The notes under the pieces are model-generated. The model did not search any database. It saw only the letters and a list, made by a program, of their open reading frames with translations, and was not told where the DNA came from. The position numbers and the translations under genes were made by a program. From Antedon mediterranea (Eukaryota > Animalia > Echinodermata), in NCBI RefSeq assembly GCF_964355755.1, contig NC_092676.1, positions 19,672,871 through 19,736,870 on the forward strand: 64,000 bases of DNA. Reading direction: 5' to 3'. Shown one piece after another: positions 1 to 52,059 of this stretch. Positions within the stretch are counted from its first letter, which is position 1, and each line of letters opens with the position of its first letter.

Positions 1-245
1 AATGTGTTCCTTTCTGATAGGGGTATGTCTCCTGCCGACAGACTATTTCTCCTTAAATTCTTTTCACAAGAAAGTGACCCAAATGAGGAGTGCTAATGTA
101 TCTCCATATAATTATATAAAAAGTGTGCTAATTTCTAATCATTTCTGTTTCATATTAACAGAGAAAATGTGTTTCATTAAAAAAAAATAAAACTCTGAAT
201 TTTGCTGCCACATTTTTACTGTACTCAACTGTCTTCCACACACAG

Positions 246-3200: not shown

Positions 3201-6200
3201 TAGGATCAGTGTTTCAGTAGGTTTTATCACTACATCCTCCTTTAATCCTTCATTAATCCTTCTTTTGGTGAATACTAAAAGAAGAAGTTTAAATTCATAG
3301 AAGTTGATTGTTGTTTGACATGTGTAAGAAGTTTCTATATACCAGGTATTAAAGACTTAAAAACAAATAATATAAGATGAAAACCTTTTGTCAACATAGT
3401 TTTACTCAATTATAATTGCTCTTTTCTTTATAGACTGACTCTGAGGTGGAGGAGATGATGAAGAAGAAATCAAAAACTTTAACAAAAGCAGCAATGGTGA
3501 AAAAGATCCGTAAGAAGAAGCTTGTTGTTAACACCAAAGTCATTTTTGATGATGAAGGAGAGGTAACATATACTTTTAACTATATCGCGCTATATTATAT
3601 CTCCCGCTTAAGATGCTATACAAACAAAACTTCCAATAGTGTATAAATTTACCTTTAGGTAAGAAAAATGCATTGCCTATACATTTTCCACAATGTACTT
3701 TTTGTTATTCAGTATATTACACAGAGGCGGCTTACAAGACGGAACCACCTTAGCTTCAAGGCGCCTCAGATAACAAATACAACATTTAAAAAAAAATCAA
3801 ATCTTCCAGAATTAACAAGAAATTGTTGTACATAATAAAACAATAAAGCATTTTCACAAGTACTTAAGTATTTCCATGCTTGCAAAATGCCTTAGTTACA
3901 TACCCATGGTGTACTATAAGTGTTAGTACCTTATTTTCATTTCATTTTTCCAAGTTGAAATGTCTCCATTAAACTCTGGTGAAAAAAACATGATGTTGGG
4001 ATAATATAAGCGTCTTGTAAGACGAGACTTGGTTGTTTTGAAATTACCAATGTTCTTCAACTTTTTAAAAATATATTTTAAAATATTTGAGATTACATAA
4101 TAATCTCTAATCAATTTCTGGTATCTTTTCTTGCCAAGTAAAATAAACATGTCAACAATTTGACACATTTAGTCATATGAAAAGTAAACAGAATTATCAT
4201 ACGTGTGCTAATAACGTTACATTTTACTCATCGTTTGAAGTATTGACTTTGACTGTAGAAAATAACTCATCACAGTTCCTAAAATTATTTGATAGTTGTA
4301 TGTGACAACCTCATTTAGATGAGTATAAAGATATCTTGTAATACTTCCCGGTAATGATAAAAAATACGTCGGTTACGATCTATCAATCGAATGATTAATA
4401 CTAAGTAACTGATTGAGTGACTAACATGATAGATCAAGACCTAGCTTTAAATCCTTTTCCATTCCATCAAGATTTTCCCACGACCTTGTCTTTTTTATTT
4501 TCTATCTTTGACTTGAAATATCAAATTAATTGGATTTTCCTAGAAACACTACTCCATCTGTTTAAAAATTGTCTATTGTGGTTTTATTTTTTGTTGACAT
4601 AATAATCTTTATTCGATGTGATGTTCATTGAAGTACTGTATAAGTAATGACGTCCATCAAAATTACAAGATTAAATATATATCCCTTTGAGAAAACAATT
4701 TCTTTTTGTTGAATAGACCATTTTAATATCACATTAAATAGTTAAAAGCCCATTTGTCTGGAACAAACATATTTCTGGTTAAAAAACCATATACACTACC
4801 TATAATATAGTAACAAACTGTTGATATGTTAGTATAAATATACAGCTATTTATAGTAACAAACTTTTGATAATGTTACTATAAATATACAGCTACTTATA
4901 GTAACATATCAACCAGGCCTTGTTTTTTAAGGCAATCAAGTACGATCTAACACACATCTAAACTGCCCTTGAGGAGTGCGATTTACAAAACGCTTAAATT
5001 TGCTAAACACCAAAATACAAACAGCACACCTACAGTATCCCTGAATATATTGAGGAGTGCAATTTGTAGCACACCTATAATTTTCAAAAGACAAGGCCTG
5101 ATATCTGCTGATATGTTACTATAAATAGCTGCATATGGAAAGAAAAGTACACCATTTTTAAAAGAAAATTCTAAATTATTATAACTGACCGTCTATAGTT
5201 TTACTGGAATGTCATCACTCTTATCCTAACCACATTACCATAAATGTTATCAAAACTTTCAGCAACTGCATACATTTTCCTGCATATTCAATTTCCAGAT
5301 TTACCACTAATAGTCACATTTACGCCAAACCTAGCAAACTTACTGAATTTGTTAAATCAGGAAACTTTGATAAATAATGAAATAATAATTTTTAAAAATT
5401 CAACCAATTTAAGACAATTGATGAATTGAATACTGAAATGACTTGATTTGATGATAACTATATTTAAATTAAATTGATATGAAATCACACTTGTTCAGCT
5501 ACTATTTCAACGATGGCGGAAGTATGATCGACATTTGATTCCCAAAGGAGATCTTGATGTTATCTGCTTGATTCAGATACCAAGGTTGTTGAATCCTTTA
5601 TATTTAATCCAATATTGTGAATGTAATAAACTTGTTAAAAGCTTTTCCATCACTGTTGGCACTGATTGACGTAATGTCTTCCTGTTTCAGGGTGGTTTTT
5701 CTTTTTGTACTTTTTATTATTATTTAGCTGGTAATATGTTTGCTGTCTTTTATTTTACATTATTCAACGTTTAAGTAAGACTTCAACCATATGTATAATT
5801 ATATGTATGGTAGAAGATACAGTGACACACCTTTTTGACTAGATCAACAACTCGATCCCCTGAACAGCTGGATAGGGATTCGCAATTGGTTAAAACATAC
5901 TATATCTGTCCACGTTAAAGATTTTTTTTTGCTTTGAAACTATGAGCTCTCTCTGTTATTCTGTTATACAAATGAATGCATTTTATTTGAAAAGCCCAAC
6001 ACTGTATTTTCCCCTTGGTTAAAAAAAAGAGCAAATCCCACTACAACTACTTTTCCACTTTCTCACAATCGCACATTCCCTTTTGAAATATAGGTAGTAG
6101 GACAACTTTACATTGTATAGAATGTCTGTATAGGATAATCAAATTTTGTTGTCATCTTGTCTCTAATGTAGGTGGCAGAACAATGGCCTAAACCACAGGT

Positions 6201-9200
6201 AGCTAAAGAAGGTAAAGATGATGAAGAAGAAGATGAGGGAGGCATCAACATTCAAAAGGCAAAAAGTTTTCTTCAAGAAGAGGATAAGCATGACAAAGAG
6301 CTGTTCAAACAACGAGTGCGAGAGAAACACAAGGTTTGTATTGATCCGTAATTAATAACATCAATAAGAGCCTCTTTAAAGCTCTGTCAAACTTTATGTG
6401 ACAAAAAAATGTGATGTGTTCATATATGGACATGATGATGTCATATCACTACCATATTTGGGCACATCACTACCATATATGGGCACATCTTACTAGACTA
6501 GTTTGATAGTGTAGACAGAGCTTACGACCAAACAAAGGAGGAGTTTTATGTAGTTACATAATGGGTAGTGTAGACAGAGCTTACCAAACAAAGGAGGAGT
6601 TTTATGTAGTTACATAATGAGTAGTGTAGACAGAGCTTACCAAACAAAGGAGGAGTTTTATGTAGTTACATAATGGGTAGTGTAGACAGAGCTTACCAAA
6701 CAAAGGAGGAGTTTTATGTAGTTACATAATGGGTAGTGTAGACAGAGCTTACCAAACAAAGGAGGAGTTTTATGTAGTTACATAATGGGTAGTGTAGACA
6801 GAGCTTACCAAACAAAGGAGAAGTTTTATGTAGTTACATAATGAGTAGTGTAGACAGAGCTTACCAAACAAAGGAGGAGTTTTATGTAGTTACATAATGA
6901 GTAGTGTAGACAGAGCTTACCAAACAAAGGAGGAGTTTTATGTAGTTACATAATGGGTACTGCAAAAAAAAGAAATATAAAAGCGTATTTCAAAACATGA
7001 TTTTGCCCTTCCGGTTAATACAGTTGCTGTTCATGGAATAATAACATCGTGTACTGTAATAGTACAGTTCCATGGTCACACACTAATGTTAAACTGTTCC
7101 ATATGGCTCCAATTTTCCAAGGTTCTCCCCTCATCATCTGTATGTCACTTCTCATCAATTCGTTAGCGCGTCATGAGTACTCGTTACTATATCATGACAT
7201 TTTGCACCATGGCATTAAGTTTCCTTGATCTTACTTTTCTGTCCCTGACCAAAAATTAAAATCTCGGTTTATGCCATCTAAGTGTTTTGGCTTTTAATGT
7301 TTCTTGAATTATTGAAAGTAATCATGAGTAATTTAGTCGCCATATTGGCATAATGTTGAAGGCCTTGGGTGTATCTACGCTAAAGGTCAAAGGTTATCTG
7401 ATTCAATTGAATTGGTTTGGCTCCATAAATGGGATACTTTTTAAAAAAAGTGAGGCAAATCCAGAAAAATTAAACAGGGGAACATCTAACATGATGCTAT
7501 TATTATTATTAATTATTATGACAAATCACTTATTTATTTAAACCATAGACAAATAAGTTATTCTTCATGTTTAAACACACAAAAAACAATGTAAATAATT
7601 GTTTTAAACTGAGTAAGGAACCGTTTTCCCACATGGTGCTATGCCTAGCATTCTAGTAGCTGTGTTAATGCAGTTTCACTCATGTTAAAGCCAATTTACA
7701 CAGACGATCGGGTTTATGAATCGTCTGTCTATAGAAATATACAAAGGTGAAATATGTGATTGTCTATAATGTAACACCACTGTCAATCTTGTTGCAGGCA
7801 AAACGACTGAAAGAAAAAGAGGACAGAAGAAAGTCTAGAAAAAGGAAGGAGGACAGACATTCTGGTGATGATAGTGACGATGGAGAAGGAGGCGGAGTCA
7901 TGTTGGATGTGCAGTCAGAAGATACATTTGATGTCGATCTACTACCAGACCCAGATAAACAGAAGTCATCAGAAGATGAGGAATTAGAGGAGGATGAAAA
8001 GAAAGTATCAAAAAGGAAAAAGAAAGACAAATCAGATAGGTACATACAATATAAGTTATGATTGACAACTATCCAACACTTAATGCATATTTTTGGACTG
8101 TGGGTTGGTAAATACATAATTAAACGATAGAGAAAGATTATGTAATTCTATAGACTATTCAATAATATTTTGGCTCGTACAGTGGTGATATATTTTGTTT
8201 AACTTAGAGAAATCTTCAGCCTAAATGTATTAATATTTTTTATGGTGATTGGTTAATGGTTAGACCATCTATACATCACAGCCAATCACCAGTTCTAAAC
8301 AATGTTTATTTTTGGAATATTATTCATGAGCAGTAAGATACACGGTACCTTTGATCTAAAGTTGTTGCAAGTCCTTCTGTTTCGTTTTTTGCACTTAAAC
8401 TAATGCAAGTGCTACAGATACATACTGTAAAAACAACAAATACAGAGAATTTGATTAAAAAGATATTTATACAAATAAACGCCCAGCTTCGAATAAATGC
8501 CTCCCCTGAATAAACACCTCCCATAGAACAACCCTTTTCAATAAACGCCACCCCCTCCCTCTTTTCGAATAAACGCCACATAAACTTTATTTATTTTCTC
8601 GAATAAAATCCCCGTCACATGCATACAGTATATACACAATATTGTATTACAAAACATTTCTATTTGTAGAAATCATTGATCAGTTTTATGTATTTTATCA
8701 CTTCTCGGTATTGTGTTGTATCTTGTCATATCTAAGAAGTATTTAATTGATTATACATTCTAACATGTTACCATATTACACCTAAAATAAACGCCTCCCC
8801 CAAGTAAATGCCTCCCTCGAATAAACGCCTTCCCCTAAAAGCCATCCTGAACAATAAACACCCTGGGGCGAGGGCATATATTCAAATAAATACAGTATAT
8901 ATGAACAAAATTGATCATTATTCTACCCCATCCCAGCATCTAAATTTAACATCCTAACATGTTACCATATTACACCAAAAAAAAAATAAACGCCTCAACC
9001 TAATAAATGCCTCCCTTGAATAAATGGTCCCCCTAAAAGCCCTCCTGAACAATAAACTGGGGCGTGGGCGTATATTCAAATAAATACGGTATATTAACAA
9101 AATTTTAATTTTTTTTATATTGCAGCATCTAAATTTAAAATCCTGCTGTTATAATAATAATAATAAATACTTTATTTTAACACGGAAAAGCTTGTGTCAC

Positions 9201-9771
9201 CATAAAGGTGTTCTTCTACAAGGCCGTGATCAACTAACAGTAGTACATTACACATTTAAAAATAACAAATTTTAAAAATAACAAATTTTAAAAATAACAA
9301 ATTTTAAAAATAACAAATTAGAGAACAAAAATATATGAACAGAAACCTTAATTACATTTGTGATAAGAGTACAAAATAAATAATAAATCACACCAATAAT
9401 TTTTTGAAAGTATTCAAATTTGTGGCATTTTGCATTGGTTTTTTTAGAGTATTCCATAAACTAGCACCATGATATGAAAAACTTTTTTTTTTATATTCTG
9501 TTGTGTTTTTGACTGACATTTGTCAATGTTAATGATGCACAGTCTGATTGACGATTGATTGACATCCATCTGTCATTTTTAAAATGTCAAGTTCAATTGA
9601 ATTTGCTCTCATCAACCTAATTTTTATTTCCTTCATTGCAGTGTACGGAAAAGAAAACAATCCAAAACAAACTCAATGCCATCCGGCGGCGATTTTGATA
9701 CGGGGATGACTCTAGCCGAGGATGAGGAATTGGCGTTACACATATTATCAAGCAACATGATATCAATATGA
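246..9771 (+). CDS. DDX10: DEAD-box RNA helicase DDX10/Dbp4, 3' part (5' exons lie outside the window)
   Basis: GT-AG exons 246-432, 878-1054, 1455-1959, 3434-3562, 6172-6333, 7798-8039, 9642-9771 join in frame. They give [29 protein letters not shown] (motif VI), [31 protein letters not shown], and C-terminal [17 protein letters not shown], all matching DDX10. Confidence 0.95.
4914..5100. mobile_element. Short MITE
   Basis: Terminal inverted repeats caggccttgttttt ... aaaagacaaggcctg; interrupts a short local repeat. Confidence 0.5.
6379..6523. mobile_element. Harbinger-like MITE family A (copy 1 of about 5)
   Basis: Ends aagctctgtc... / agtttgatagtgtagacagagctt; core atatggacatgatgatgtcatatcactaccatatttgggcac recurs at ~14644-14753, 17042-17204, 19266-19406, 47554-47703. 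Confidence 0.75.
6506..6957 (+). repeat. Tandem repeat, 56-bp unit x ~8
   Basis: Unit gtagtgtagacagagcttaccaaacaaaggaggagttttatgtagttacataatg(g/a); starts at 6565, 6621, 6677, 6733, 6789, 6845, 6901 plus a first, slightly longer copy. Confidence 0.95.
8460..9145. repeat. Tc2/pogo-like MITE remnants with ataaacgcc repeats and a local ~190-bp duplication
   Basis: Repeated (a)ataaacgcc motifs; ends aaataaatacagta / aaataaatacggta; ~8755-8960 is repeated at ~8950-9145. Confidence 0.5.
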
Positions 9772-10142: not shown

Positions 10143-10901
10143 AACAAATGGCATGTGATAGTTGCATAGACTACAGTCTATAGACTACAGCCCTTAACGG
10201 CAACTACAATATTCAGTGTAAACTTGTTGCACATCTCATTGGGACTGTGCCTCTGATTTAAAAGAGATACAATAAAAGTTCAGTTCAGTTCACCATACTG
10301 GGAGAGATGAGTGTTTTTAGGTTTACATGTATCATATATATATGATCTTTTTCCTTCTGGATGTCAGGGTATTTTACTGTATGTGTACAAAATTTGAATG
10401 ATTTAATTTGTATAATGTACTGTGGTTTACTGTCTATAAAAAAAATCATGGTACGAAAAGTAAAAGCACAAGAAAATAATGTTTGTATCTTTCACACAAA
10501 ACAAGGGCAGATCCAGGATTTATCAAACAGTGGAATGTTACATATAATATTGTTTTACAAAATTATTTTAAAATTAGTTCATAATTTCATTTGAGTGTCT
10601 CTACAAAGAATTATTATTCGTACTACAGGTATAATAAATCTGCAAAATCTCAACTACAATTTAATTAAAATGAATTTTATGCAATAGAATATTTATGATA
10701 GTAACATAGATAACGATCTTTTCTCTGATCATTCTATGCCATTAAAAGACATTACTATTGCACATGACATCATGTTTAATGATGTTATTTGGGTTTTGAA
10801 ATAAAAACTTTCTGTAGTGATCTGACATCCATGACAGAAATGGAGTTATTTTCTTGAGCTTCCAGGTCTGTCTAATACTTGTTTACTGAGTAAAAAGCTC
10901 A

Positions 10902-11077
10902 ATAAGGTTTATCGCAAATACCTTGATTTCGCGAGAAACGTCATTCCACAATGGATAATGGGAAGGGTTTGGGAGCAATAGCGCCACCGTATAATACAAA
11001 CTTTATATACTGGTGGTGGTATTGTTCCCAAACCCTTCCTATTATGCATCGCTCACGCAATTTGCGATAAACCTTAT
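10902..11077. mobile_element. Hairpin MITE upstream of the CaRF-oxidoreductase gene
   Basis: 18-bp TIR ataaggtttatcgcaaat / atttgcgataaaccttat plus internal inverted arm gggaagggtttgggagcaata / tattgttcccaaacccttcc. Confidence 0.8.
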
Positions 11078-11419
11078 GTACATACTGTTATTAAATATAA
11101 TAAACAACATCCAAAATTAATTGTATGAATGGCTATGTTTAAAATATTCTGTTATAGACATGGTTATGGTGCATACCAATCGCATCATTATTTTAAACAT
11201 AATTATTATTGATTATGAATACTTTTATGAGAAATTTTTTTTTTTTTCAATATTAAAGAGCGTAAATATATGATTATGTTGTGTGTTTTATTGGTTTTTT
11301 TTAATATAAATGCGACGTTTAAACGCTAAATGAGTATACCATCAGAAAACAAAAACAAATTCATACCGTCACCAATATTGGGCTGAAAATGTTTTTTACT
11401 TGGCAACCTTGTCTTCAAG

Positions 11420-14400
11420 ATGGATCCAATCTTGAATCCTGATGACAAAATTGCTCGTGAAAAAGACGGTTCTTGCTGGACGAGTCTATTTGCTGGGACA
11501 ATTTTACCTAATTATGGTTACGTAAACAGCATCGAGGATTGTAAAAAACTCACTGAATTTTACGCCGAAGTAACATCGTCAAAATATGTCGTTACCAAAG
11601 TTAATAAAGCTTTCGGAGAAACCGGTAGGCTTTTCATCTTCATGTTTAGGTAGTCTACCTGAACTACCGCACCACCACCAATGTGCCCATCATTGCGAGG
11701 CGATGTGTAGGATGGAATCGAGATTCATAGGCCTAGCCTAGGCTTACACTACTTCTGCCATTATACTTACTTGTGTGGTATTTGTAAGAGTATATCAACA
11801 CATTGGATGGCTTTCATTTATTTTATTTAAACTAGAGGGGCCTATATGTACTAGGCCCTAGTATAATTTTCCTTTTAATTGATTTTTTTTTTTAAATCGT
11901 ACTTTCTGGCAATTTCATTGTTTTGTATTGTAGAGTGTCACATGTGTGATGCAAAATTCAAATTTCATTTTTATTCAAATAATTTTCTTTAAAAAGTAGC
12001 CTTGTTTTAAACTAAAATTTGTGTGATGCCAATACAATTTATATCGAGAAGTAGTAGAAGGGAAATGAGGCAATCTCTATACTACTAATTACTGTTGTCA
12101 CTAAACTCTTTTGGATTGTACAATGTGCTTTTAATGTGACTGTATAAGTACAAAAATAAATTCTTTTCAGATTTCAAAAGAGAACCACATCGTCTTACAT
12201 GGGAATTTAAATCATGCGATAGCCAGGGAATGGATATTCCTTTTGATGGAGTACCGTTTATGATCGTAAGCAAGAAGATTATGAGTTGCCAGTATGGATC
12301 GGACAAGTGCATCGCACAGAAACGTCGTTACAGACAAAAGATGGAAGTAAGTTTTGTATTAACTGTAGCAGTTAGTCGGTACAAACAGTCGTGACCAGCT
12401 GAGCGTAAAAAAAAATAACAGCGTTTTCAGGGGATTTCACCTTTTCAGGACACCATGTTAATTAAAAAATCGTAATTCCTTTACGGATAGTTGTTTGAGA
12501 AAATAAATTACTGTGAAATGTTCTTGAAAGATTGGCCTACATCACTGTATGATTGAAAAAAATTAGAAACATTTTTTTCAGTGCTTAAAATTTACATAGT
12601 GCTACATTACAAATATTCATATTTTTTATTGTAAATAAGTTGTGGTAAAAACAAATCGTTTTCATAAACAATAATATACAATTTAAAGGAACAAAGTAAA
12701 ATTCAATCACATTTTTATAATAGGAGCCTGGAGTTACAAAGAAGCGAAGAAACGTTGTGTTCTGCAAAAAGCGAGACTGTCCTGTTCAGATTCGATTTAG
12801 AGAAGTCATCAAGTTTCCAGACTATAAAGTAAAGTGTTCAATTTCGGTCAATTTTTTTTAAAGAAAAAAAAATGCTATGAGTTCGACTTTCATCGTCTTT
12901 TCTGTGAGAGTGTAATATATTAGCAGTATTCTCGGGACAACATCCCTTTGTTGGGTACTGAAGGTCCTCTTAAAAAAATGGTTTTACTATATAAAAAATT
13001 TGGATACGTGTACATTTTCTGCAAACATGTAGTTTTGTTAGTTAAATCTACAGCTATTACGTCCCTATCCTTCCCAAATTATTGTAAAATTTGATTTTAA
13101 CCAAGCAAATGGAAATAAAAATTACATTTAAGGGTTGATAAATTTAGCAATTAATAAATTTGTAAATTCTGAAATCGAATCAAATTGCCAAATTCATGAT
13201 ATCGTATTTCTTAAAAAGTGGCACTGGCGTTTAAATTAATTTGTTATCCTTGGAAAAATTGCAGCAACTGTTCTTATAATAAGCATGTTTTATATATATG
13301 TGGAGCCTGTTATGTAGGCCTACTGTAAAACAAGGTTAAACATGGTATATATTCCAAAAAAATACCTCCTATTTAGGAGGATACTTTGGAACCCAAAAAG
13401 GGATGTCTCCTGATTATTGGTTGGTTCTAGTGTTAAAATATATATTGTCCCTTGTTTGTTTGACAGGTAAGTGTCCCCTTCATAATGGTGTCCCTTGAAT
13501 TGGTGGTCCTAATGTAAATTAACCAAATATGGTACTAGTGCATTCTTACACTGAATCAATTTTCAGGCTGCCATTTAAAATTTCAAGAAATTAGAGTTAA
13601 TCTATTCACACGGTTAATAACCGGTTATTTTTTGCCAGAAACATGACCTTTGAAACATGACCTTTGACTGCCACTTGTAGGAACAGAAATGAAAAAAAAT
13701 ATTGTTTTGTTATTTTATAAATAATGCTACAGTATATGATTGCAAAAAAGCATCCATAATTTTTTTTTAACTGAATAATGTTTTATCAGAAATTCATATG
13801 AAAAAGTAGTTCCTAATTTCAAGGGTTGTCGAAGGGTAGGAGTGTCCCCCACCCTCTTGGATCTGCCCTTGATATACACAATGAATTTGTGTTTCAACAT
13901 GCCCTTTGACCCATTGAATAGATTACTAGTTGAAGAAGTGAGTGATTTTGTATGCATATTAGAGAATGCATTTTCAATGGGATGTATAAAATTAAATTAT
14001 GTCGTTTTTATTTTTTTAAATTATTGGTTTCTTTTTTATAAAAGGAGAAATCCTTAACCCAAATTAGTCATCGCATAGGGATATGAAATGACCTTGTTAA
14101 TTGTCCACCCAGTAATATTATATCGAATTATTAATTATTAAAATGAGATTTATTATTCAATCTGTCACTTTGATAATTATTAAGGTGCATCTGTCAAATT
14201 TAGTGGGTTTTTTTTTTTTTTAAAAAATGTAATTTTAATTTTTTTCAGTAGTTTAGCTAAGCATTATAAAAATGTTGTGTGCTGTATCAGTCCATATTTT
14301 ACTATTGTGCCAATTTATTTTGGGACGATGTTTTTACTGGCTTTACTAAATCACTCAGTAGTCATCTTAAACAGTATAATTATATTACTGTACAAGAAGT

Positions 14401-17400
14401 ATGTGAGATATCAATTAATTAAAGAAAAATAATGAATGTTTATATTCGTAGAATGGTACAAATAATTTCATTCAGTGATTTCTACTATTCCACACACAAA
14501 CAGTCATTATTTGTATACTATTGCATGTTCAGCTTTTTGAAAATACTGTAATGCATGACAGCAGGTTATTTAAAAATGGAAAGTGAATATGAATAGTTTT
14601 GATGGAATAAATCTTTACCTCAGAACAGTAGGTGTTTTGACTAACTAGTTTGACAAAAGTGTGATGTGCCCAAATATGGTATTGATGATATCCTGTCCAT
14701 ATATGGGCACATTTTTTTTTGTCACATAAAGTTTTATAGTGTAGACAGAGCTTTATATTTTTAACTACAGTAGACCAAACTGAAATACTGTACTTATAAA
14801 GAAATAAGTCCTTTTTTCTTTAGGTCGTAAATGACAGTAAATACAACAGAAGAGTTCAATCACGTAAATGTCATCATGACATGAAGACTGGAGTCAATGT
14901 GCGATTTGAAAGACAGATCTATGTTCTTCTGCCATCACCAGATGATCACCAGTTCCATCCAACCCACAAGGTATGTTTACATCTGGTGCATCTGCATGTA
15001 TGTCAGAAAGAGGTGTTGCCCTGTCAATACACTACACAATACAATTTATTTGTCAGGTGCAACTGTAGTTTGGTTTCAAGGTTTTATTAATTCTAATGTC
15101 GATGCCTAATGTCAATGGCTAATTTCCAAAAAGAGCTTGACCTATCTCGTAAAAGTCCTAGACTTCTAACAAAGAAATACATAGTATGGTATGATAAAAC
15201 TGATAATAATCATTCAACAGTAAAAGAAAAACATTACAATTTTAACATACATTAAAACACCTCCTTTGGGACACCCCTATTTAGAAAGATACCTCTATTG
15301 AGGGAATACTTTCCCATGAAATGAATTCGGGGCAACATATGTTCTTGCACTAGAGACAACCCCTGTTAAGGGGAAAATTTTCTGAGTCCTCAATAGGGAT
15401 TTTACTCTATCCTAATGTCAAAATGAAGGCAAATTATTTTACTTTTTTTTAATAAACTGTATAGTACAGTAGGTTATGTCCAACACACCAGACAAAAAAT
15501 TTTAACCACAGTTTGACCCCTGAATAATGTGCTGTTTACTTATTATTAATATCAAAATTAAGGCAAATTATTTTACTGGAAAGTAGTAAAATGTCCAACA
15601 CATCAGACTCAAAGTTTAACCATAGTTTGACCCCTAATCAAATTGCTGTTTACTTTTATTAATATCTGTGGTTCCAGCCAAGTTCAAGGCAGTATTACGA
15701 CATGAAACCTCAGAGGAATAGGGAAGTCAAAATATAACCTGGGTTAAGCAGGGGGTCAATGTACTATATTTTTTTTCTAATACTGTTACTGGATTATGAA
15801 TTTGCACTGTTTATTTACTAATTTGACATTTGATTTTTTTCGTTTTGTTAGCGACTTAGTTCCCAAGATCCCATTGGACAGACATCCATTTCCTGCGTTG
15901 GTCATGGATTTGTAGAAAAATGAGTTATAAAAACATTTTGACAGATTAATCTCTTTAAATGAGATAGTACTGTCATGCCATTTTATATTCAATCAAACAA
16001 AGTATAAAAACATGTACATATTATAAAGTCTGAGTGGGATTTCTTTATAAAATCAGAGTAAAAAAAACTCATTTGAATTGTGTTAAGTACTGTAACGGTT
16101 TAATTCTGGTGTCAAAATTATCTTAAACACAGCACAAAAGATTTCAAAAAACATATTGTAAATTGTTTGCAGAAAGTGTTTTACTTGATAGTAGAATTAC
16201 GCAAATGATCAGTTAAAATTCTAACCGTATAATATCAAAGTTACAACATACTGTATTTAGTGACATCTATGCTTACAACAACTACAAAAAGTGTTGTAGT
16301 AAGTCTTGGTGGACATGCTTCAAAGTCCTAATAGAGGACTTTTTTGTGACCTAAAGGTGTCCCTTAATAGGAGTTCTACTGTATATTTTTTAAAGTTAAC
16401 CAATGATTTTTGACAGCAGAGATATGCCGAAACTATCCTAATGAGTTAGGTTGGTGTAAAAAGTGGAACTTGGCTCTGTCATGCAATACAGGCTTAAGTT
16501 TCAGGGTTAGGCTACTTATCCCATAAGCTATGTCTGAGAGCTTTATTAGAATGCTAAAAGATCATTGAAATTTCACCCAGGATAGGTACCCTGGTGGGCT
16601 TACAGAAGGTTAAATTATAGGTTTCTAATTTGCAAATATATCATTAAGGATAATTTTGGAGGATATTCTCACGCACGATTGAGATGATTTTCCTAAGAGA
16701 GATTTAAATTTGATGGGTGATTTGTTTCTTCCCCCTGATTTAGTTCCTATGGGATTAGGATTGAATAAGCCTAGAAAAGTCTTCCGTTGATAAATGTTTT
16801 GTGATTGGGAATTGAAAATAAACGTCATCTACGTATCCGTCACCATATACAAATGCGACTACCGCTGTCAGCTCTCCACTTTCTCACTTTCACAAGTTCT
16901 ACCGAATATTTCAACTTTTGATTAATTAGAGTAATTAAATGCAACTTTCTATTATTCACAATATTAAAAATTCAGTTTAAATTATTTATATTTTAAGTGT
17001 ATTTCTAAGATTTTGTAACTTAGGAAACTAATTCTATTCTGAAGCTCTATCTACTACAGTATATCGAACAACAACAAAAAGTGAGATGTGCCCAAATATG
17101 GTAGTGATATGCCCAAGGTAGTGATATGCCCAAATGTGGTAATAATATGATGTCGTCATGTCCATATATGGGCACATCTCATTTTTTTAGTGTAGACAGA
17201 GCTTAATAGTAATTCCTTCAAATAATACCAGTCTGGTATTCTATGGGAGGTTGGTGCTATGGACAGGATTTGAACCCAGCTTCTGGGATTGTTAGCCAAG
17301 TGTGTTCCCAACAAAGCTACAATTTTCCATACTGACTGCAAAAAAAATCTCAATCAACCAATTTCTTTACTCTTTTAGAAGGATTTTCGAATGAGAGCAG

Positions 17401-20400
17401 CAGTATTGGACAAGTCAATTGACCAACCGCAGTACAGGTTAAAGGTCATCATTAACAAGGTTTCTAGGCCAGAGCCTAAGAAAAATGAAGTGCGGATAAA
17501 AGTAGCGGCAACATCAGTGAGCAGACAGGACATTGCGAAGGTAATATACGCACATTGTTAAGATATTTGATCCTCGGTAAGCTTGGTTTGAACACCGCCC
17601 TTTATGATACCTTGCAGCTGTGAGGTTGATATTATAAGCAAGATAATCTATAAAAGATATATAGATAAATTTATTGGGAAATGATTTGTAATTATTAGAT
17701 AAGCTTTGACATTTAAATGGATTTATATTTGGTCAAGCTGAGTGGTTAAAATGGCTTCTTTCCAATCATTGTCAAATAAACTAAAACTATAGCTTGGAAT
17801 TTAAAATTATATAATAAAAAGGCTTACAGTCTAAATCAAATTACTTTACTTTTTTTGTCCTGTAATTAAATTGGATCTAAATTTCTTTAAGATAACATCA
17901 AACTTTTGAGAAAGATTTACTTTTCGGACTTTTGTATGTATTATTGAGGTGTTTCTTTCTTATTTTATTTTATTAATTCTTTATAGAAGTGCTTTGGTGG
18001 TTTTCTTTGGGAAAGGGGCAATACAACAACATCAGAAAGCCCTATTTAGGGGGAAGGCACAACTCCATTAAGAGGCCACTTTTTGGTGTCCCCTGTAGGG
18101 AATAATTTGGTATTTTGTTGTCCAAAAGATTTAATATATTTTTGTCCTTAATGTTTTCCAGAGATATGAAAGCTGGCCATTGCCACTAGGAGTCTCCAGC
18201 ATGGTAGGTACAGATGCAGCTGGTACAATAGAGAAAGTTGGTGATATCCTTCAGTCTAAGTGGAAAAAAGGTAAAAATATAATGCATGTAAATAATTTAA
18301 AAGAATAATAATAATGCGCTTTCCAACAAAATTTACATTTTACAGTTTTTAATTTATTGTTGCTCTTGTATTTTAGGTGACCGCGTAATGTGTCTTGTAT
18401 CCCATGGTGGGAATGCTGAATATGCCATAGCGTTGGAGGATCATGTGATGCCCATCCCAGATTTCATGTCCTTCTCCGCTGCGGCGGCTATACCAGAGGC
18501 TTGGATTACAGCGTATTATCTACTTCATGTACTTGGTAAGATATATTGCAAATTAGAAATGTATAATCCCAGTTCGAGTATAATTCCATTGTTATCCATT
18601 TATCGACAATAAATAGATAAATATGCATAACCATATACCCTATCTTTGCTGAAAATAATTTGTTGAAAGTTCCAATAGCAATAATAACGATTTTATTGTT
18701 CTTATGGATCATGACGTCATTTTATTGTATTTAAAAAAACACAATTTGTATCAAAGACACAATAAATGGTTATCTTAAGAAAGACGCATGATTATCTATT
18801 TACTGTCGATTGTTAGCATTCTGGGCCTTTAGACTCCCAATTATTCTTTGTCAGAGATTGTTCCCTTTTCTTACAATCAATTCCTTTCGATTCGATTATT
18901 TTCCTTTTGTAGTAGGTGGTATAAACAAAGGTGATGATGTACTGATACATGCAGGAGCTAGTGGTGTTGGAACGGCTCTCATTCAGCTGGTCAAATTGGC
19001 TGGTGGTCGCGCTATTGTCACCGCCAGTTCATGGAGCAAGTTGGAGATGTGCAAGAACATTGGAGCTGTAGCTGGATTCAATTACAAGGAACAAGATTTT
19101 GCACAAGAAGTGCTTACGTTCACCAAAGGTACAGTATGCATGAATAAACCTGAATTTAGTATCAAATATAGAGGGCTCACTTTTTTATAATTAGAGTTTG
19201 GGACAATTTTCAGCATGGAATCTTGCCATGATTTATGACGTAGCGTATGGTAAATTTGTTTACTTAGGCTCTGTCTACACTATCAAAGTTACTGTGACAA
19301 ATAAATGTGACATGTCCATATAGACACTATGACGTCCTATCTCTACCTACCACATTTACATCACATTATTTCTGTTTACACTAGTTTGATAGTGTAGACA
19401 GAGCTTGTGTTATGGAAAATGGGTCGCTTTTATACAATAGCCGCCTCAAGGAGCATTGGACCGAATGTAAAAAATAAACATTCATTCGTTCTTGTTGAGT
19501 TCTTCCACCAAACATCTGTCCACAATATTGTTGTTTGTTCAGTAAAGTTATGGTTGTGTTCCCAAATATGGTACTGATATGACATCATCGTGTCCGTAAA
19601 TTTTGTTATAAATTGGATCTTTTTTTTGTATTTTATAAATAGGGTTGTAAAAAATGTTGAAAAAGATACACACAAACATAAAAAAGACTTTTAAAAACCA
19701 TTAGACAAATTTAAAAATTGTCTAATGGTTTTTGCTAGCTATTTGTTTTATGTATCTTGTTGATGTACAGTATTCTACATTATATCAATTTTATGGTTAA
19801 TTTGATAAATATTTTTTATTTGTCACTTAGATCAAGGAGTAACATTGATCTTAGACTGCGTTGGTGCGATCCACTGTGCTGGAAATGCGCAGGTAATAGC
19901 AACAGAGGGCGTGTGGGTGGTTTACGGTTTGCTAAGTGGAACCGAGACGCCTATTGATCTACTGTCGACGATTTTGAAAAAGCGTGTGAATGTTATTGGA
20001 GCATCCATGCAGAGTATGGACAACAGTGTAAGTACTTAACCTTGGTATTATAGACTTTTATGTCCTTTGATTTGAATGAATGCTTAGTTCCAAATGAGGA
20101 TGTATGTATCGAATTAGTGGTTGTTTTAGTGGTTAATGTTACATTAGTGTTTGATTGTTGCGTTACTGGGTTCTAAAGATGTATACATTATGCAAGTTCA
20201 ATCAGATATGTATTTGCATCATTGTTATATTTTGTGTGACTATATCGTTTAGGTATTAAATAAAATTTCTTAGGTTGGAAACTTATTTTAAATATGCAGT
20301 AGTACTCCTGTTTCAAGAGAACTTGACTGTTTAAAAAAAAATATCAATAATTTGGCATTTATTTACCTTACAGTACAAAGCTGAACTGGTTGCTGGATTT

Positions 20401-21435
20401 AAAGAGAGACTATTACCCCATTTTAGTCCTGGGACGCAGTCATCTCTGTCACCCATAATCAACAAGTTATATCCTCTAAAGTGCGTTGGTGAAGCTTATC
20501 ATTTTGTTGAGTCGAATAGCAGCATGGGAAAAGTAATCTTAACATTAGAGGATAGTTTAATCAGGGATGAACAAGCAAAACGAGAACTGTTAGAAGTGGC
20601 CAAGAGCTTTGAGGCTCTTGCTAATGGTGTTATTGAGGTAGATCAAGGAAAAGTGACAGTAATGCAGGATGGACAAGTCTTGGCAGCTGAAACGCTCAAA
20701 CTCGGACATATCATTGGATTGCGACAACAGAATAACGTTCTACAGAGCGAAACAGAGGAGAGTGTTCAGGTGTTACTAGCAGATAAAATGGATGTTGGAT
20801 CGACCGTACACGTGACGACAGACCAGGTGCAGGGATTGAATAGCACTAATCTTCTAGTTGGTATGCAAAATGTAGAACATGAAAACACTATAGTGTATAC
20901 AGATCATGAGCGTACATTTATTATTGAAAATGAACAAGAATCCATATCAAATGCAAAGGATGGACAATTTACACAAACTTGTGCCGATAACACGTTTATA
21001 TATTCAGGATCACAACCAGATAACCAAAACCAAGTATTAAACCATGTGCAATCGATCGAACAATCAAACAGCTTTAACCAATCAGAAGCTGAGCATCTTT
21101 TAAATCAAGGTCAAATTGAAGGACAGCCACAGTTGATTGGTCATATTCAAGAGGTCGAAACCATGGATACAGATCATCTTTATCATGACCAGCCAACTCA
21201 GTCATATAACACGACTGGACAGTCAATAAACATACAAACACAACAAACTGATTTTGATGGTATGAATAGCTCAAATCAAGCACAACATATCGACTCGCAA
21301 GGAGAATTGAACCAAGGATTTACACAAAAGGTTGTGTACACCAACCAACCTCACCATTCTGGTGATAAACAACAGGAGATAATATTTGTACTAGAAGAAG
21401 CTGTAGCAAACTCGTCCTCTGAATGTCATGGATGA
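11420..21435 (+). CDS. CaRF (ALS2CR8)-like zinc DNA-binding domain fused to a PIG3/TP53I3-like quinone oxidoreductase with a Q-rich tail (isoform A, ~844 aa)
   Basis: Exons 11420-11624, 12171-12346, 12724-12828, 14824-14970, 17379-17540, 18162-18270, 18377-18535, 18916-19128, 19831-20027, 20374-21435 total 2535 nt, all GT-AG and in frame. CaRF motifs: RLTW, IPFDGVPF, SCQYG, DCPVQI..KFPDY, IYVLLP..HQFH. PIG3-like motifs: AAAIPEAWITAY, VLIHAGASGVGTA, AGFNYKEQDF, LILDCVG, VYGLLSG, MGKVIL. Confidence 0.85.
13320..13510. mobile_element. Tc1/pogo-like MITE remnant family (also ~15255-15400, ~16310-16384, ~18040-18100, ~38230-38620)
   Basis: Shared motifs cccctatttag(a/g)ggata(c)ct and gtgtcccttaatag...ctactgta; degraded. 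Confidence 0.45.
14644..14753. mobile_element. MITE family A copy
   Basis: gtgatgtgcccaaatatgg core, ending agtgtagacagagctt. Confidence 0.65.
17042..17204. mobile_element. MITE family A copy
   Basis: aagctctatctac ... tagtgtagacagagctt with the shared core. Confidence 0.7.
19266..19406. mobile_element. MITE family A copy
   Basis: ggctctgtctacactatcaaa ... tttgatagtgtagacagagct; full TIR pair. Confidence 0.8.
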
Positions 21436-21970
21436 GGTCATTTTTTTTTACTATACTATTGTACAAAAATTGTAGTAGAAAATGTCTAAATAAACACCAT
21501 TAGGGGACACTTCGGTTTCAATTTAGAACCAATTTCTTATTTCAAAGAATTTTTACTAATGAATAAAAATACAATTGTTTATGTATATTTATCCAATGTG
21601 TGCTGTGTTGTTGTGTGGTACAAATATTTTCTCCATCCAACAATTCTCTGTTACATATTCCCTCTATTTTGTCATATTTTACAGCATTTTTCAATGCAGA
21701 GTGGCTCAATTTTCCAAGCGCAGCAGTCATTTATATATATTGTCTTACATATTGTGTAAGACTAGTAGCCAAAGCGTTTGGTAATGTTTTTTTATTATTT
21801 AAATAAGCTCCTATAGTCAATAGAAAGTTACAATTGTATTGATGCCTAATCTCTGAAATCGTCAGGAAGTGAGCCCTCTATATTTATTCAGAAACGCACA
21901 ACGAAAATTAACCAAACCTCTGACAATTTTAATCACCAAGAGCATTGTGTTGTATAACTTTTTCTTTCAG

Positions 21971-24900
21971 CTTGAAACTGAAACAAATGAAGATGCCAAG
22001 AAAGGTTGGGTTTCCTTTATCAGCAAGAAAAGGGACTGTCCGGCTAATGTCACATTGCTGGAAATTATCAAATTTCCAGATTTTACAGTATGTTTTGAGT
22101 TACTAATGACTAATGTTTTAACTATTTGAACTTAACAAATTTATACTGTTCTCAGAGTACATAATCATCATTAAATATGAAAATACAGAGAAACAACACG
22201 GACACACAAGCAAACCCACACCAACCCCATTCCAATGTTGTACTGTTTGTATGACATGAATAAAGTTGAAAGTAAAGTAATCCTTTGTCACTTGGAATAT
22301 AACTCCTTTATCCAAGGTGCAGATTCTGAGAGGCGGATGACCTTACTTTATTTTAGTGGAAACACAACACACTAAAATATATATAAAACTTTGTTTCTTT
22401 AATTTTTGCGCTACAGGTACATGTTCTGTCAAAAACCCTGTCAGGCCCCACTCCTGACCCCTGCAACCACTCAAAAGCACCCCCTCCTAAAGTAAAAACA
22501 TGTATTATCAACTTATAGTGTGTATTTTGTTTTTAGCTTGAAGCAGACTCTGAAGATGGTAGGCGGTACGTGTCACAATACTTTTTTACCAAATTGAAGG
22601 AAGGAGATGTAAAATCTGAAAGACGTATTTATATTGCACTACCACAGCAATCTGATCACCAGTTTCATCCTTTCGAAAATGAAACCAAATATGTTCCCCG
22701 TAATAGGAGTAATGTTGAGATCCTTAATGATAAATGCAGAGTAAGTTTCATTAGCCTTCAAAGAAATCCATTTTACCTAGTTTAATGGTTATTTAATTAT
22801 TTTAACAAATAAATGAACCCAACAGAACTCATCTGTAGCAGAGAAGAAGTACTCAGTTTAGTGAAATAATATTTTGGGCTTGAGGTTATTGTCTGTTAGA
22901 TTGGGCTATATGTTTCTACTCTAGTACCTCACAGTGAAAGCAATTGCAAGCCAAATAAGGGGAAATATACTGTATACATCATGCAAGCGTACTTATTATA
23001 TTTCGGCTACAATTTGTACATCATTTTATTGTAAATGCTTTTACTTCAGTATTCCTAATGAATGTAACTTCATTTATTTTATTTTTTATTTGTATATATT
23101 GTATGAGAAACCAAAACACTTTCCTCTTTCCAAATTACAAATAATCTAAAAAATATCTCCAAAAAGATCTAACAATCTATTTTTGTTTTCATACCAGATT
23201 TCAAGAACCTTGAGGATAAAACAAACAATACGGGCCGCAATAGCTTCCAAGTCTGGATCTGTAGAAGACATCAGTGTTAAACGTATCCCAATTTCGATGT
23301 ATGCAAAAAGTGATGAGATAGTTATTAATGTTTTTGCCAGTGCTGCCAATAGACAAGATATTGTAAAGGTAGTGAATGAATTGTTTATTTCTGAGGCAAA
23401 ATGATAAGAATAATAAATGTTTCAAGCATTATAACGATGGAGTGTTTTAGTTTTAAGACAGCAGCAGCCGATTTTATAAACGGTTTCTAAGACCCCAATG
23501 TATTCTATTGATCACCAAGAACTGTTCTTTAACCAGTTTTAAATTTTAGCTGACATAACACAACCATGATCTGCTTAACTCTGAAATCAATGTGAATATT
23601 TAAAAGTCAAACTTCCACTTAAGGAAAACTGTGTTCTGGCTAATAATATCATTTCATAGTGAAGTATGTACAGTAGTTAACATTAAGTTCTATCATTAAT
23701 TATTTGTTTTTTCTGTCTTTTCTATATTTTTTCAACCTTTAGGACATCTCGATAACAAGTGTGGGACAACAGATTATTGGTTGTGAAGCAGCAGGCATTG
23801 TATATGCAACAGGCAACAAAGCTTCCAAATGGAAAAATGGTAGAGTAACACATTTTATTTTTTCACTTCAACTTCTCGGCATGAATCTTGCAGCCAATTC
23901 CAGCTGAAGCTATAATTTTCTAGTGTATAGATGAATTATGTGCACCACATTTGTCACAAGTGTATTCTGTACACCACATGTGTTTCACAATAGATACATT
24001 ACCTTTATTATATGCCTAACATACCGTATTTTCCGGAGTATAGGTCGAGACTTTGTGGGAAAATTTTAATTGCAAAATCGGGGGGTCGACTTATACTCCG
24101 ACCATGCGATTTTTGAAAAAAAATCAGGCCGAAAAAATATGTTCCAAAGCCGTCAGCTGTCAAGGCCCAGCAAGGTCAGTGGCCTATCATCAATCACTCA
24201 CAGAAGTTTTCAATTTAATACCTACACTGTACAAAATAATACAACTCCAACAAGTACTGGTCAATAAAATATTAATATATCACAATGACTCATTTTGATA
24301 TTAATATTATGCTTTTAAGATAATTAAGAATAAATAGTTTTCTTTATGCTTCTTATTCACTCTCGCGAAAATATCGTAACACACACCACAGACGTCGGAA
24401 TGTCCATGCAGCATGTTTGTTATTGCGCGATATTTTCATCTATATGCATGCGCAGTTTGGTTGTTTGTTCGTAATTACAATTACTGCGCATGTCTATTCA
24501 TAAAATAAATTCTCCTTAGTCGGGTGCGTGTACATTTACAGATAACGCGATTTACAACTACTCGCCTGTACAATTTAATAAGCCTCCTAACGGAAAACTC
24601 GTTTTAATTTATTCGAGTGACGCGAAAAACATCGCTGATGGCAAGTAATGCTACATCGCTGTCATTTATTATAGGCTGGTGAAGACGGCGGCGGCGAAGT
24701 CGTCGTCATTACGTCCGTCCGATATTGATTAGGCCTACACTTTAATAATATAAACAAATAACCACATTTCATACATTTCTAACCCTCTTTGAACTTTAAA
24801 GTAAGTTGTGTTATTAGCCGATTTTGGGGGTCGATTTATATTCAGGTCATACCAAAATCAACGATATTCTAGGCCAATGTTGGGGGTCGACTTATACTTG

Positions 24901-27900
24901 GGTCGACCTATACTCCGGAAAATACGGTAAATCCAAGTTTAACTTTCCATGTCCATATCATGGAATTCTCCTATGTCATATGAAAACTATTCAACATTTG
25001 CATATTTTACATATTCCAGGTGATAGAGTGATGGCATATTTACATAGTGGAGGATGTGCTGATAAAGTTACTGTACATCAAGATCATGTGATGTCTGTTC
25101 CAACATGGATGACACTATCATCAGCTGCTGCACTCCCTCAAGCGTGGTTGACGGCCTACAATCTGTTATGTCATGAAGGTTAGTACTGTATATATGTATG
25201 TAAGTTCGCAGTACACAAAAATACTCTTCTATGGCTAGTTTCAATCATTTTCACTGTGAGCCTTGCTATCTTTTTTTAGATAGATATCTATATTTTTTAA
25301 TTTCATAAGCATCCAACCGTGAGTAACTCGCCAATTACAGGATGGATAAACTAAACTTTTGTTTTCACCATGCAAACTTCAAACAATAAAACACTGTATA
25401 TTGCACATTCATACAAAGCCATTACATTCCAGGAGAGACTTTAAAATGATTAGTTTTGGATGCATGGTGTACATGTAATAGTTTCAGACTTTCAATGTAT
25501 AGAACCTAAAAATAGCTTTCTTTTTAATAAAAATCAATTGGAATCAAGTGTACATCAACATAAAAACATAAAATGCTGTGAATTCTCTCTTTTTCTTGTT
25601 TGCAGCTTCTATGAAACACGGTGACATTGTCTTGATCCATGCAGGGGCTAGTGGTGTAGGCACAGCACTGGTCCAATTGGTCACCATGGCTGGGGGTGTT
25701 GCAATTGTTACAGCAGGCTCAGATGGAAAAATTGGAATTTGTAAATCATTGGGTGCTTCTGCTGGATTCAACTATAAGTCTTTAGATTTTGCTAAGGACC
25801 TCACAAATCACCTTAATGGTAAATTATGTGTTTTATTTCTTGGTTCAAAATGTGTATGACTGCCCAGACACATTTTTCACAACGTGTTAAAGCAGAAATT
25901 GTGGATCATGTATGAATTTAATTATTAATAGACACCTAACCATATTTCATGTGAAATCCTCATCAGCCACCAGAGTCACAGCCAGAGTTTCAGAATGTAT
26001 TTTTTTTCCAGACACCGTCTGTCTTTGGAACAAACTACCACAAGAGGCTGTGGAGTCAACATCACTAGAGGGATTACAAAATTGTCTCTCCTATGTTGAC
26101 ATAAATGAAAAATCTAAAATTATCTTTAACAACAAAATGTAATGTAATATAATATGAAACATGTAGAACACAACATTTTTGGAAAGGCATAAATGCAGAC
26201 CAACCCATGTGCGACTATACTTAAATGAGGTTCTGCACATAGGAAGATGATGATGAGATAATTTAATAATCTGTCTCTTGAATATAACTAATTATTTAGT
26301 ACTGCTTCCAGAAAAGCTGTTGACATACAGCTATAAGGAATAACGTTGCCAGAACATCATGTGACTATTACCACTATAGACTGTAATTACCATTGCTAAT
26401 ACCAGCGTGTATTATATTCTATTAATATTTAGTAGCTGAGTTTCCTATTGGTTATTATAAATAACATTTCTTTCTTATTATTCTTTTCTTTTTTGGCCCT
26501 AAATCTCTTTGATTACCTTATTTAAAGAAATAAAAATCTCACACATAAATGTGCTATTTACAAATAAATTCTGAATGATATAACTAAAGTTTTTTAATTT
26601 TAATAGGAAAACGTGTACATTTGATCTTTGACCCAGTTGGTGGTACTCATTGGCAGTTGAATAGTAACATTATTGGACAGGATGGAACTTGGATTATCTA
26701 TGGTCTTTTAAGTGGGCCTTATATTGCTGGAGATATGAGACCACTCTTGAAAAAGAATGTTACAATCAAGACATCCTTGCTGAAAAATAAGTCCAACGAG
26801 GTAAGTCAATCATTAAGAATAAATTGTTTCATTTAAAATGTTCTTATTGATGGAAAATCAGTAAAAAAAATCATTTGAGAATAACTGTACCTGTGGTGTA
26901 GGCCTGCCCTACACTAGTCATAGGCTCAGTTCACCCTAGGCTAGTGTAGCATAGACTAGACTAATACTACCGTTTAGTATTACTAGCTAATACTGGACGG
27001 GTGTCCCGTTGACTTTTCTACAACATACTGTGTGATGTACAAGATTGTGGCAAAAGATTGCTAGGACCCAAGTCACTTGAGTCCAAGTGTTTGGATCTGA
27101 CAATAGGGAATTTAAAAGTTGCCCCAATTTGAACAAAAATAAAGAATATCATATATTATATATGTTTATATAATAAAATGACCATTAGATGTAGTTCATT
27201 GCTTAAACTACCATTACCAATATGAAGTGAGAAGAAGCTATAAAAGACAACAACAAAAATGGCTGTTATGGCTAAGATGTCGTCGGGATTTTTTCTCATG
27301 ACAAAAAGCAAACACCACAAATAACCTGTAACCAGTTTTGTTTAATATGTTGAGCATATTGTGTGAGCTTTGAATTATCTTTCGGATATCCTTAGAAATA
27401 AGAAAGAAAATAAAAACAAAGAGAATATTATCTCCGTTGATGATCTTATCGAATGTTCTATTAGGTTATTAAACGCGCCACTTAAACTGGAAATGTGCGG
27501 TTATATAAATACCAAGTATTATTTTATTCTAGCACATAGCAGAACTTACCACAGAATTTACCAAAGATGTTCTACCATATTTTTTACCAAATGATAAAAT
27601 TCAACTGAGTCCAGTTATCAACAAATTCTACCCATTAGAAGAAATTAAAGATGCTTACTCCTTTCTGGAGTCAAACGAGACCATTGGAAAATTGATTATC
27701 AATATTAAAGATGAGGATATGTCTAAGGTAGGAGTACCAAGTAGTTTACAGAATCGAAAAAACGTCGAGGTTCCGGGCACGTGCAGTCAGCTCGAAGAAT
27801 TGGCACACGCATCGTCTCAATTGCTTGAAGAATCAAGAATGCTGGAAAGAAGAAAATCGGGTTTGGAATCTCCGCTTGATGTTTTTATTTCTTCTGAGGT

Positions 27901-27919: not shown

Positions 27920-28172
27920 TTCAAACCAATGTTTGGATAAATAGGAAATCTTATTCTTTGAAAAAGTAGAACCTTTTAATACTCGCTTTTTAAAACAATG
28001 TGAAATGAGGTTTTGTTTTTTTGTCCAGTTAAAAATGATTTACTAAATACTTCATTCATTTACTAAATAAAAGTACATTTATTAAAAATGATAAAAACAA
28101 TTCCATATCTTAAATTATTTTTATTTCATTTACCTTTTTACTTGTATTGTTCTTCTATCAAATTTACCCTAA

Positions 28173-52025: not shown

Positions 52026-52059
<34 letters not shown>

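Follow-up and report, generated by a model that had tools for sequence, protein, structure and literature searches.

A CaRF-type zinc finger joined by splicing to a PIG3-type quinone reductase in the crinoid Antedon mediterranea

Structure and transcript support of the fusion gene

The stretch of DNA analysed here (the window) comprises 64,000 nucleotides of the Antedon mediterranea genome (contig NC_092676.1 of assembly GCF_964355755.1, positions 19,672,871 to 19,736,870 of the forward strand), and all coordinates below are counted from its first letter. Its plus strand carries a gene, here called gene A (11420-21435), in which a zinc finger of the CaRF (ALS2CR8) type and a quinone reductase of the PIG3 type are encoded together, and it is followed by a partial second copy, cassette B. 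Gene A consists of ten exons, all with GT-AG ends, which form 844 codons followed by TGA, with no internal stop. Exon 1 (11420-11624) encodes Met1 to Thr68, a strand-helix-strand segment by which the finger domain is extended at its N-terminus, and ends at a GT donor in phase 1. The ALS2CR8 domain starts in exon 2 (12171-12346; PF15299, E 5.9e-12), which also contains Met89 and the codon of Cys108 (12287-12289), and continues through exon 3 (12724-12828), with a KKRDCP motif that includes Cys146 (12778-12780), into exon 4 (14824-14970), with the HxxH pair His204 (14947-14949) and His207 (14956-14958). The PIG3-type domain begins in exon 5 (17379-17540), where a Ser occupies the position of PIG3 Asn40, and runs through exon 6 (18162-18270), with a Trp at the position of PIG3 Tyr51, exon 7 (18377-18535), exon 8 (18913 or 18916-19128) and exon 9 (19831-20027) into exon 10 (20374-21435), the remainder of which encodes a tail (about 20557-21432) and the TGA (21433-21435). 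Exon 8 opens at one of two NAGNAG acceptors (18913/18916), matches PF00107 and holds the nicotinamide adenine dinucleotide phosphate (NADP) motif AGASGVG at 18951-18971. Pfam places ALS2CR8 on exons 2, 3 and 4 in profile order (8-50, 59-88 and 90-139 of 235) and ADH_zinc_N / ADH_zinc_N_2 on exons 8-10, and the families PF15299, PF08240 and PF00107 are all found in the fusion architecture.

Five public sequencing runs contain the last exon of gene A; none is recorded as RNA, and run X4 has no type on record. Four runs were aligned to 10600-28600, and X4 and X1 again to 10200-23950. Since the contigs of X1 and X4 skip GT-AG introns, these two runs were treated as RNA. X4 (study P2) and X1 (study P1) each yield one contig which skips all nine introns of gene A, including the one that separates finger from reductase: the fusion junction 14970->17379 appears in both (alignment row 14968->17377, cut shifted by +2, GT..AG ends), where the shorter flank is 145 letters long, and the other eight junctions lie within the same two contigs. 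The evidence consists of assembled contigs, not reads, from which transcript levels are not readable and from which rare forms are dropped. The contigs of X2 and X3 are DNA-like and continue through introns, with intron 4 covered from 14730 to 17105. The preliminary description of this locus had proposed a ten-exon frame of 844 codons in which exon 4, with HQFHPTHK at its end, has a phase-0 donor at 14970 and is followed by exon 5 from 17379, again in phase 0, and both proposals hold, with the length becoming 845 residues (one additional Val) because both spliced contigs use acceptor 18913. Residues 89-845 of this longer protein are identical to the A. mediterranea RefSeq models XP_071956548/9, the X1 and X2 forms of which differ by the NAGNAG Val. 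The joining of a CaRF-type finger and a PIG3-type reductase in one spliced gene is thereby confirmed as a real fusion, and separate CaRF and reductase genes are ruled out by junction-spanning contigs from two studies; the lack of such a junction, which the preliminary description had named as refuting the fusion, was not observed. The two spliced contigs begin at 11429 and 11431 and leave the start ATG at 11420 uncovered. Met89 is the first residue of the Antedon RefSeq models; the X1 model of the crinoid Anneissia japonica has a Met homologous to Met1, and exon 1 of gene A is 63% identical to that model.

The CaRF-type finger

The predicted zinc ligands of the finger, two spaced cysteines and a histidine dyad (C108/C146/H204/H207), are invariant in all five aligned finger rows. 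The ALS2CR8 family is matched at 100-119 bits against a Pfam cut-off of 28.9 (E 4e-34 in the Anneissia ortholog), and a bipartite basic motif resembling a nuclear localisation signal (NLS) spans residues 119-136 of gene A, starting in exon 2. Identity between Antedon and Anneissia amounts to 83% in finger exons 2-4, 74% in the reductase and 54% in the tail. According to the accessible text of PMC2877716, it is this same domain, there termed DBD/NLS (DNA-binding domain and NLS), by which human CaRF makes direct contact with DNA. The CaRF-type domain of the preliminary description is thus present, in spliced contigs as well as RefSeq models, but the rest of CaRF is absent; the finger is of the CaRF type, yet the protein itself is not a CaRF.

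Among the neighbours of the finger in the Atlas, CaRF clusters come first, followed by ALS2CR8 together with Mutator-like element (MULE) transposases, AFT and FAR1, and the nearest Atlas structure belongs to a chordate CaRF cluster (template modelling score, TM, 0.69). The structural model of the Anneissia finger (predicted local distance difference test, pLDDT, 72.8) shows a strand-helix-strand unit followed by three long strands. Its best fold match among 48,161 chains is Aft2 in complex with DNA (Z 5.3, against a caution line of 8 for the tool; root-mean-square deviation 2.8; 73 residues aligned), with WRKY chains (Z 3.1-3.6) and FLYWCH (Z 3.1) below it. The Aft2 match points, at the level of a model, to the MULE-linked WRKY-GCM1 fold. 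Pfam detected neither the RNase H-like catalytic domain nor the SWIM domain of MULE transposases in the protein, only the ALS2CR8 and ADH families. No match to chCaRE was found in window 9.7-11.5 kb, a result that is uninformative on DNA binding.

The PIG3-type reductase domain and the tail

The PIG3-like oxidoreductase domain announced in the preliminary description is borne out by the spliced contigs and by comparison with known structures, as human PIG3 is both the best sequence match in the PDB (E 2e-87) and the best fold match, with the two-domain fold of the medium-chain dehydrogenase/reductase (MDR) family. A full-length model of the sea cucumber protein, of low confidence (pLDDT 48.7), matched reductases only. 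The exon sizes of 109+159, 213 and 197 presumably correspond to the human PIG3 coding exons of 268, 213 and 197. With TIGR02824, a model built for prokaryote annotation, scores of 270.7 and 281.3 bits were obtained, below its curated cut-off of 296.8. The motif AGASGVG (residues 368-374) fits the pattern (A/G)xxSxxG including the equivalent of Ser151, and the Ser151 motif and the equivalents of Lys177 and Tyr192 are retained in six of six fused domains (those of gene A, cassette B and the related genes described below). In PIG3 the Ser151 motif is required for NADP binding and activity, as stated in the accessible text of PMC8007802, and a 2'-phosphate site has been described for VAT-1 (PMC7822847, likewise from the part accessible). 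By position, the retained Ser, Lys and Tyr would match that VAT-1 site, and the domain likely still binds NADP(H).

The substrate pocket differs. The Tyr51 position is occupied by Trp in both gene A orthologs and by Leu in the three remaining full fusions; the corresponding segment is rewritten in cassette B. At the Asn40 position both A orthologs have Ser, and Asn is found in four of the six fused domains. A profile search over 1.84 billion representatives gave 72,355 matches, of which the best 150 were examined (clustering at 50% hides members); among these, Tyr51 is replaced in all three fused cluster representatives and kept in 128 of the 141 unfused reductases in which the position is covered, out of 146 unfused.

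The tail of gene A comprises 292 residues with 13.4% Gln and 14.7% Asp+Glu, and a second Anneissia paralog has an acidic tail of 215 residues. Of the glutamine-rich tail proposed earlier, a modest enrichment in Gln stands, but not conservation, as only 25-27 residues follow the enzyme in sea cucumber proteins; the tail is a crinoid addition outside the core design.

Cassette B, a partial tandem copy

Cassette B (21971-27919, plus strand) consists of eight GT-AG exons (21971-22087, 22537-22740, 23198-23368, 23743-23839, 25020-25178, 25606-25818, 26607-26800 and 27533-27919) and is intact, with 513 open codons that encode the second half of the finger and a PIG3-type domain. It repeats exons 3-10 of gene A with identical intron phases and is 43% identical to gene A in the finger half and the enzyme alike. 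No copy of exons 1-2 for it was found elsewhere in the 64-kb window, and cassette B consequently lacks the first finger cysteine. An X4 contig of 1652 nt fits the sums of its exons exactly. Its protein is absent among those retrieved by protein searches.

The X4 contig of gene A extends 31 letters past 21434, and the depth of the bin concerned (37.7) equals (118x111.4+31x134.4)/459. From this we infer that the extra letters lie at 21969-21999, which implies a splice 21436->21971 one base after the stop of gene A. An ATG at 21428-21430 (plus strand; in good context, with G at -3 and +4) overlaps the stop of gene A in another frame, next to a weak donor at 21436, and after such a splice it would be in frame with cassette B over 516 codons. 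By chance alone, an in-frame ATG is no rarity in an open stretch of ten codons. The X1 contig continues unspliced to 21449 and does not cover the first exons of cassette B. Stop read-through from gene A into cassette B was rejected, as the frame stops again two codons later, and an in-frame donor at 20637 which could join the two is used in no contig.

The conservation of the half finger argues that it would be completed or paired in some way. Splicing from exon 2 directly to cassette B (12346->21971), which is in frame and would complete its finger, was not seen in the X4 and X1 contigs, and no protein from such a splice is among the two candidates retrieved; that this form exists and was missed by the contigs is possible, with the chances below even. 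Use of an internal promoter in exon 10 is somewhat unlikely. Translation by termination-reinitiation, for which an overlapping out-of-frame stop and start is the geometry described in the accessible text of PMC10275272, is unlikely. The geometry of a TURBS (a ribosome-binding site upstream of a termination) is nevertheless present here, the ATG at 21428-21430 overlapping the end of gene A (stop 21433-21435) out of frame. The core of the TURBS motif is UGGGA, of which no copy was found in 21330-21435. Some other route of expression appears doubtful.

At 35644-35922 on the plus strand, among the exons of a minus-strand aminopeptidase gene, the end of the last intron and the start of the last exon of cassette B recur as a decayed copy with 79.6% identity and 33 gaps.

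Distribution and origin of the fusion

The combined PF15299, PF08240, PF00107 and PF13602 architecture was found in Antedon, in Anneissia japonica, in the sea cucumber Apostichopus japonicus and in the transcript-sized record P0006. Anneissia has two fused genes, P0004 (877 aa), the ortholog of gene A, and P0005 (777 aa). The Apostichopus fusion is represented by P0016 (588 aa) and, from another assembly, by P0017, and P0006 is 82% identical to P0016. In all fusions HxxH is followed by Pro, and the first Met of the reductase comes within about 6-11 residues. The databases name these proteins 'uncharacterized', 'PIG3-like' or 'VAT-1 homolog'. The best 150 of the 72,355 profile matches contain three known fusions, ranked as the top three, and a Pfam scan of 27 of the 150 rows detected ALS2CR8 in two, the fused P0017 and P0080. 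The latter, a frog protein (LOC142256862), has three tandem ALS2CR8 fingers, in contrast to the report of one CaRF-like gene per species. Two vertebrate gene models, P0008 (crane) and P0052 (koala), join profilin to PIG3 and probably reflect adjacent genes that annotation or read-through has combined.

In a tree of 25 reductase domains selected from the retrieved rows, all fused domains group with animal and choanoflagellate PIG3 (support 95/96). Those of crinoids, four in number, make up one clade (100/99), and the two domains of the sea cucumber type join an unfused protein (96/92); a support of 94/95 belongs to the vertebrate branch, not to the fused domains. Monophyly of the fused domains is not rejected (approximately unbiased test, p-AU 0.135; 0.205 with the unfused neighbour, which was added after inspection of the tree). 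Since the finger belongs to a fold linked to MULE transposases, exon shuffling is the likely origin of the fusion, in which a CaRF-like or transposon finger would have been placed onto a TP53I3 gene in an echinoderm ancestor; the fused gene would later have been duplicated in crinoids.

Neighbouring features of the window

Upstream, window 1-9717 on the plus strand holds the 3' portion of a gene for a DEAD-box helicase, which we take to be DDX10/DBP4 and which ends about 1.7 kb before gene A. Separate X1/X4 contigs at 10263-10930 and 11044-11262, upstream of exon 1, may belong either to gene A, as 5' exons, or to the 3' end of the helicase gene. A very high-copy short interspersed repeat (contig depths 1e5-1e6) occurs in introns 4 and 8 of gene A (14640-14760, 17076-17190 and 19280-19600) and upstream (6390-6520). 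Beyond cassette B, window 29400-33800 contains two minus-strand open reading frames (502 and 133 codons), neither of which matches Pfam, between long inverted-looking flanks, and looks like a DNA transposon. The aminopeptidase gene mentioned above (about 35000-53100, minus strand) is of the M1 type, with Peptidase_M1_N and ERAP1_C exons, and one of its introns harbours, at 41890-44250 on the plus strand, a THAP domain with weak matches to MULE/ISL3 transposases behind it, apparently broken. Finally, an Arg/Ser-rich exon of 370 codons without Pfam match lies at 62154-63266 on the minus strand.

Possible function of the fusion protein

We tentatively favour, at a little less than an even chance, the interpretation that the fusion protein is a nuclear, NADP(H)- or quinone-responsive DNA-binding regulator with a built-in sensor of the PIG3 type. 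The finger would bind zinc and DNA, as do CaRF and Aft2, and the basic NLS-like motif would direct the protein to the nucleus. PIG3 dimerises, and the reductase domain may do likewise and so pair two fingers. NADPH/NADP+ or a quinone bound in the remodelled pocket would then alter DNA binding or the activity of the tail, which in crinoid gene A may act as an acidic, Gln-rich activation region; a low level of enzyme activity would be compatible with such a regulator. The sensor mechanism is plausible on indirect grounds drawn from sequence comparison, namely the retention of the NADP residues, the replacement of Tyr51, the NLS-like motif and a finger more conserved than the enzyme.

Several observations weigh against this interpretation. 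The ALS2CR8 match covers only profile positions 6-148 of 235 (ending at 145-148), the reductase follows directly, and the second conserved region and the activation domain of CaRF are absent from the fusion. The Aft2 match (Z 5.3) falls below the caution line, and Foldseek returned no match with the finger model. As the sea cucumber proteins have no tail beyond the 25-27 residues that follow their enzyme domain, an activation role is not general. The crinoid and sea cucumber domains are separate in the free tree, and the replacement of Tyr51 in three fused clusters may go back to a single shared ancestral change. Tyr51 is also said, in work by Porté from 2009, to bind the substrate and not to be catalytic, so that its loss would suggest a changed ligand and not a dead enzyme.

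An alternative is an enzyme tethered to DNA, in which the finger serves only to place a still active quinone reductase at chromatin or within the nucleus, for quinone detoxification or local production of reactive oxygen species (ROS), with no allostery. The intact NADP motif residues of all fused domains, the Asn40 kept in four of six (although not in the two A orthologs) and the compact, tail-less sea cucumber protein would fit such an enzyme, as would the accessible parts of two reports on human PIG3, that its activity is needed for ROS (PMC8007802) and that the free protein localises to DNA-damage foci (PMC3654439). We nevertheless consider it rather unlikely, since the pocket is remodelled in every fused copy, most of all in gene A (Asn40Ser, Tyr51Trp), conservation is higher in the finger than in the enzyme, and long acidic tails are found on crinoid gene A and the second Anneissia paralog. 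A pocket that has diverged next to a cofactor cleft that is kept could also be read as the mark of a constitutive transcription factor whose PIG3 domain would be a scaffold for dimerisation or partners, with NADP(H) in a structural role only, and may functionally replace the missing C-terminal conserved region of CaRF; however, a purely structural role would not on its own account for pocket changes that differ by paralog (Trp in A, Leu in others, B rewritten), and the proposal is quite unlikely.

It is less probable still that the finger lacks specific DNA binding and serves protein or RNA binding in a mainly cytosolic enzyme. Met89 is the first residue in the RefSeq models of Antedon and in several isoforms, which lack the first strand and helix, cassette B carries only half a finger, and the related zeta-crystallin reductases bind RNA; the zinc ligands and basic residues are conserved, however, as are 83% of the finger positions across two crinoid families, and gene A has the bipartite NLS-like motif. 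That two neighbouring genes are joined by rare read-through or by an error of the gene models is scarcely credible, for although the evidence consists of contigs from runs of guessed (X1) or unrecorded (X4) RNA status, the junction is flanked by at least 145 letters on each side in two studies, exon 4 has no conserved continuation bearing a stop (its extension into the intron stops after 39 codons) and the same join recurs in three species and three paralogs.

A more elaborate version of the sensor interpretation is improbable as a whole. It would make the fusion an echinoderm one-component transcription factor sensing quinones or NADPH, assembled from PIG3, an enzyme under p53 control, and a finger of transposon type, with paralogs bearing different pockets in the pigment-rich crinoids and with the Antedon pair bicistronic, cassette B being made by reinitiation at the AUG overlapping the stop of gene A and modulating the gene A product, through its half finger, as a heterodimer partner.

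Relation to known systems and significance

The fusion shares with CaRF/ALS2CR8 the homologous finger region and the basic NLS-like stretch inside the same domain, and differs from it in that the reductase replaces the intermediate and activation domains of CaRF. CaRF is reported as single-copy and unfused (PMC2877716, accessible text), whereas the crinoids between them have at least three fused copies. With human PIG3/TP53I3 (2J8Z, 2OBY; TIGR02824) it shares sequence, fold and the Ser151 NADP motif, but it adds a finger, and Tyr51 is replaced in all fused copies and Asn40 in gene A. The insert-containing finger with two spaced Cys is a feature in common with the WRKY-GCM1 fusions, Aft1/Aft2 and FAR1/FHY3, a four-stranded core with an N-terminal helical extension may be another, and HxxH occurs as in an animal MULE subfamily (PMC1702500). 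In fungal WRKY-GCM1-isochorismatase fusions the enzyme domain has been proposed to be a small-molecule sensor, in a paper with no mention of CaRF (PMC1702500); the echinoderm fusion has an MDR reductase instead, in another lineage and of independent origin. Capture of transposases by host genes has been described in vertebrates (bioRxiv 10.1101/2020.05.07.082677, in the part accessible). The present case resembles such host-transposase fusions in combining an exon-shuffled DNA-binding domain of the transposase type with a host domain, but it has a metabolic enzyme as its host part, and the donor of the finger may have been either a transposon or a CaRF-like gene. Dinucleotide-binding Rossmann domains also serve gene regulation in Rex, NmrA and CtBP, of which Rex is bacterial with a winged helix and the other two have no DNA-binding domain of their own; to our knowledge none of the three uses an MDR quinone reductase.

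No paper on a CaRF finger-PIG3 fusion was found in literature searches that for the most part did not extend to subscription journals. The earlier statement that no such protein had been described thus stands for this pair but not for the kind, given the fungal finger-enzyme sensor precedent (PMC1702500): the pairing of a CaRF finger with PIG3 is new here, as is cassette B, which the preliminary description had missed, and the fusion of a finger of the same fold to an enzyme was already known. [quoted passage not shown]

Animal transcription factors which combine their own DNA-binding domain with an NADP(H) enzyme domain are rare. This candidate is transcribed and is conserved in two classes of echinoderms, and the sea cucumber Apostichopus, a farmed animal, offers a system in which to test it. 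It would hard-wire a link to chromatin which, for human PIG3 in its free form, is seen only in damage foci. Quinone pigments abound in echinoderms. If the favoured interpretation is true, redox or quinone chemistry would in these animals be linked directly to gene control.

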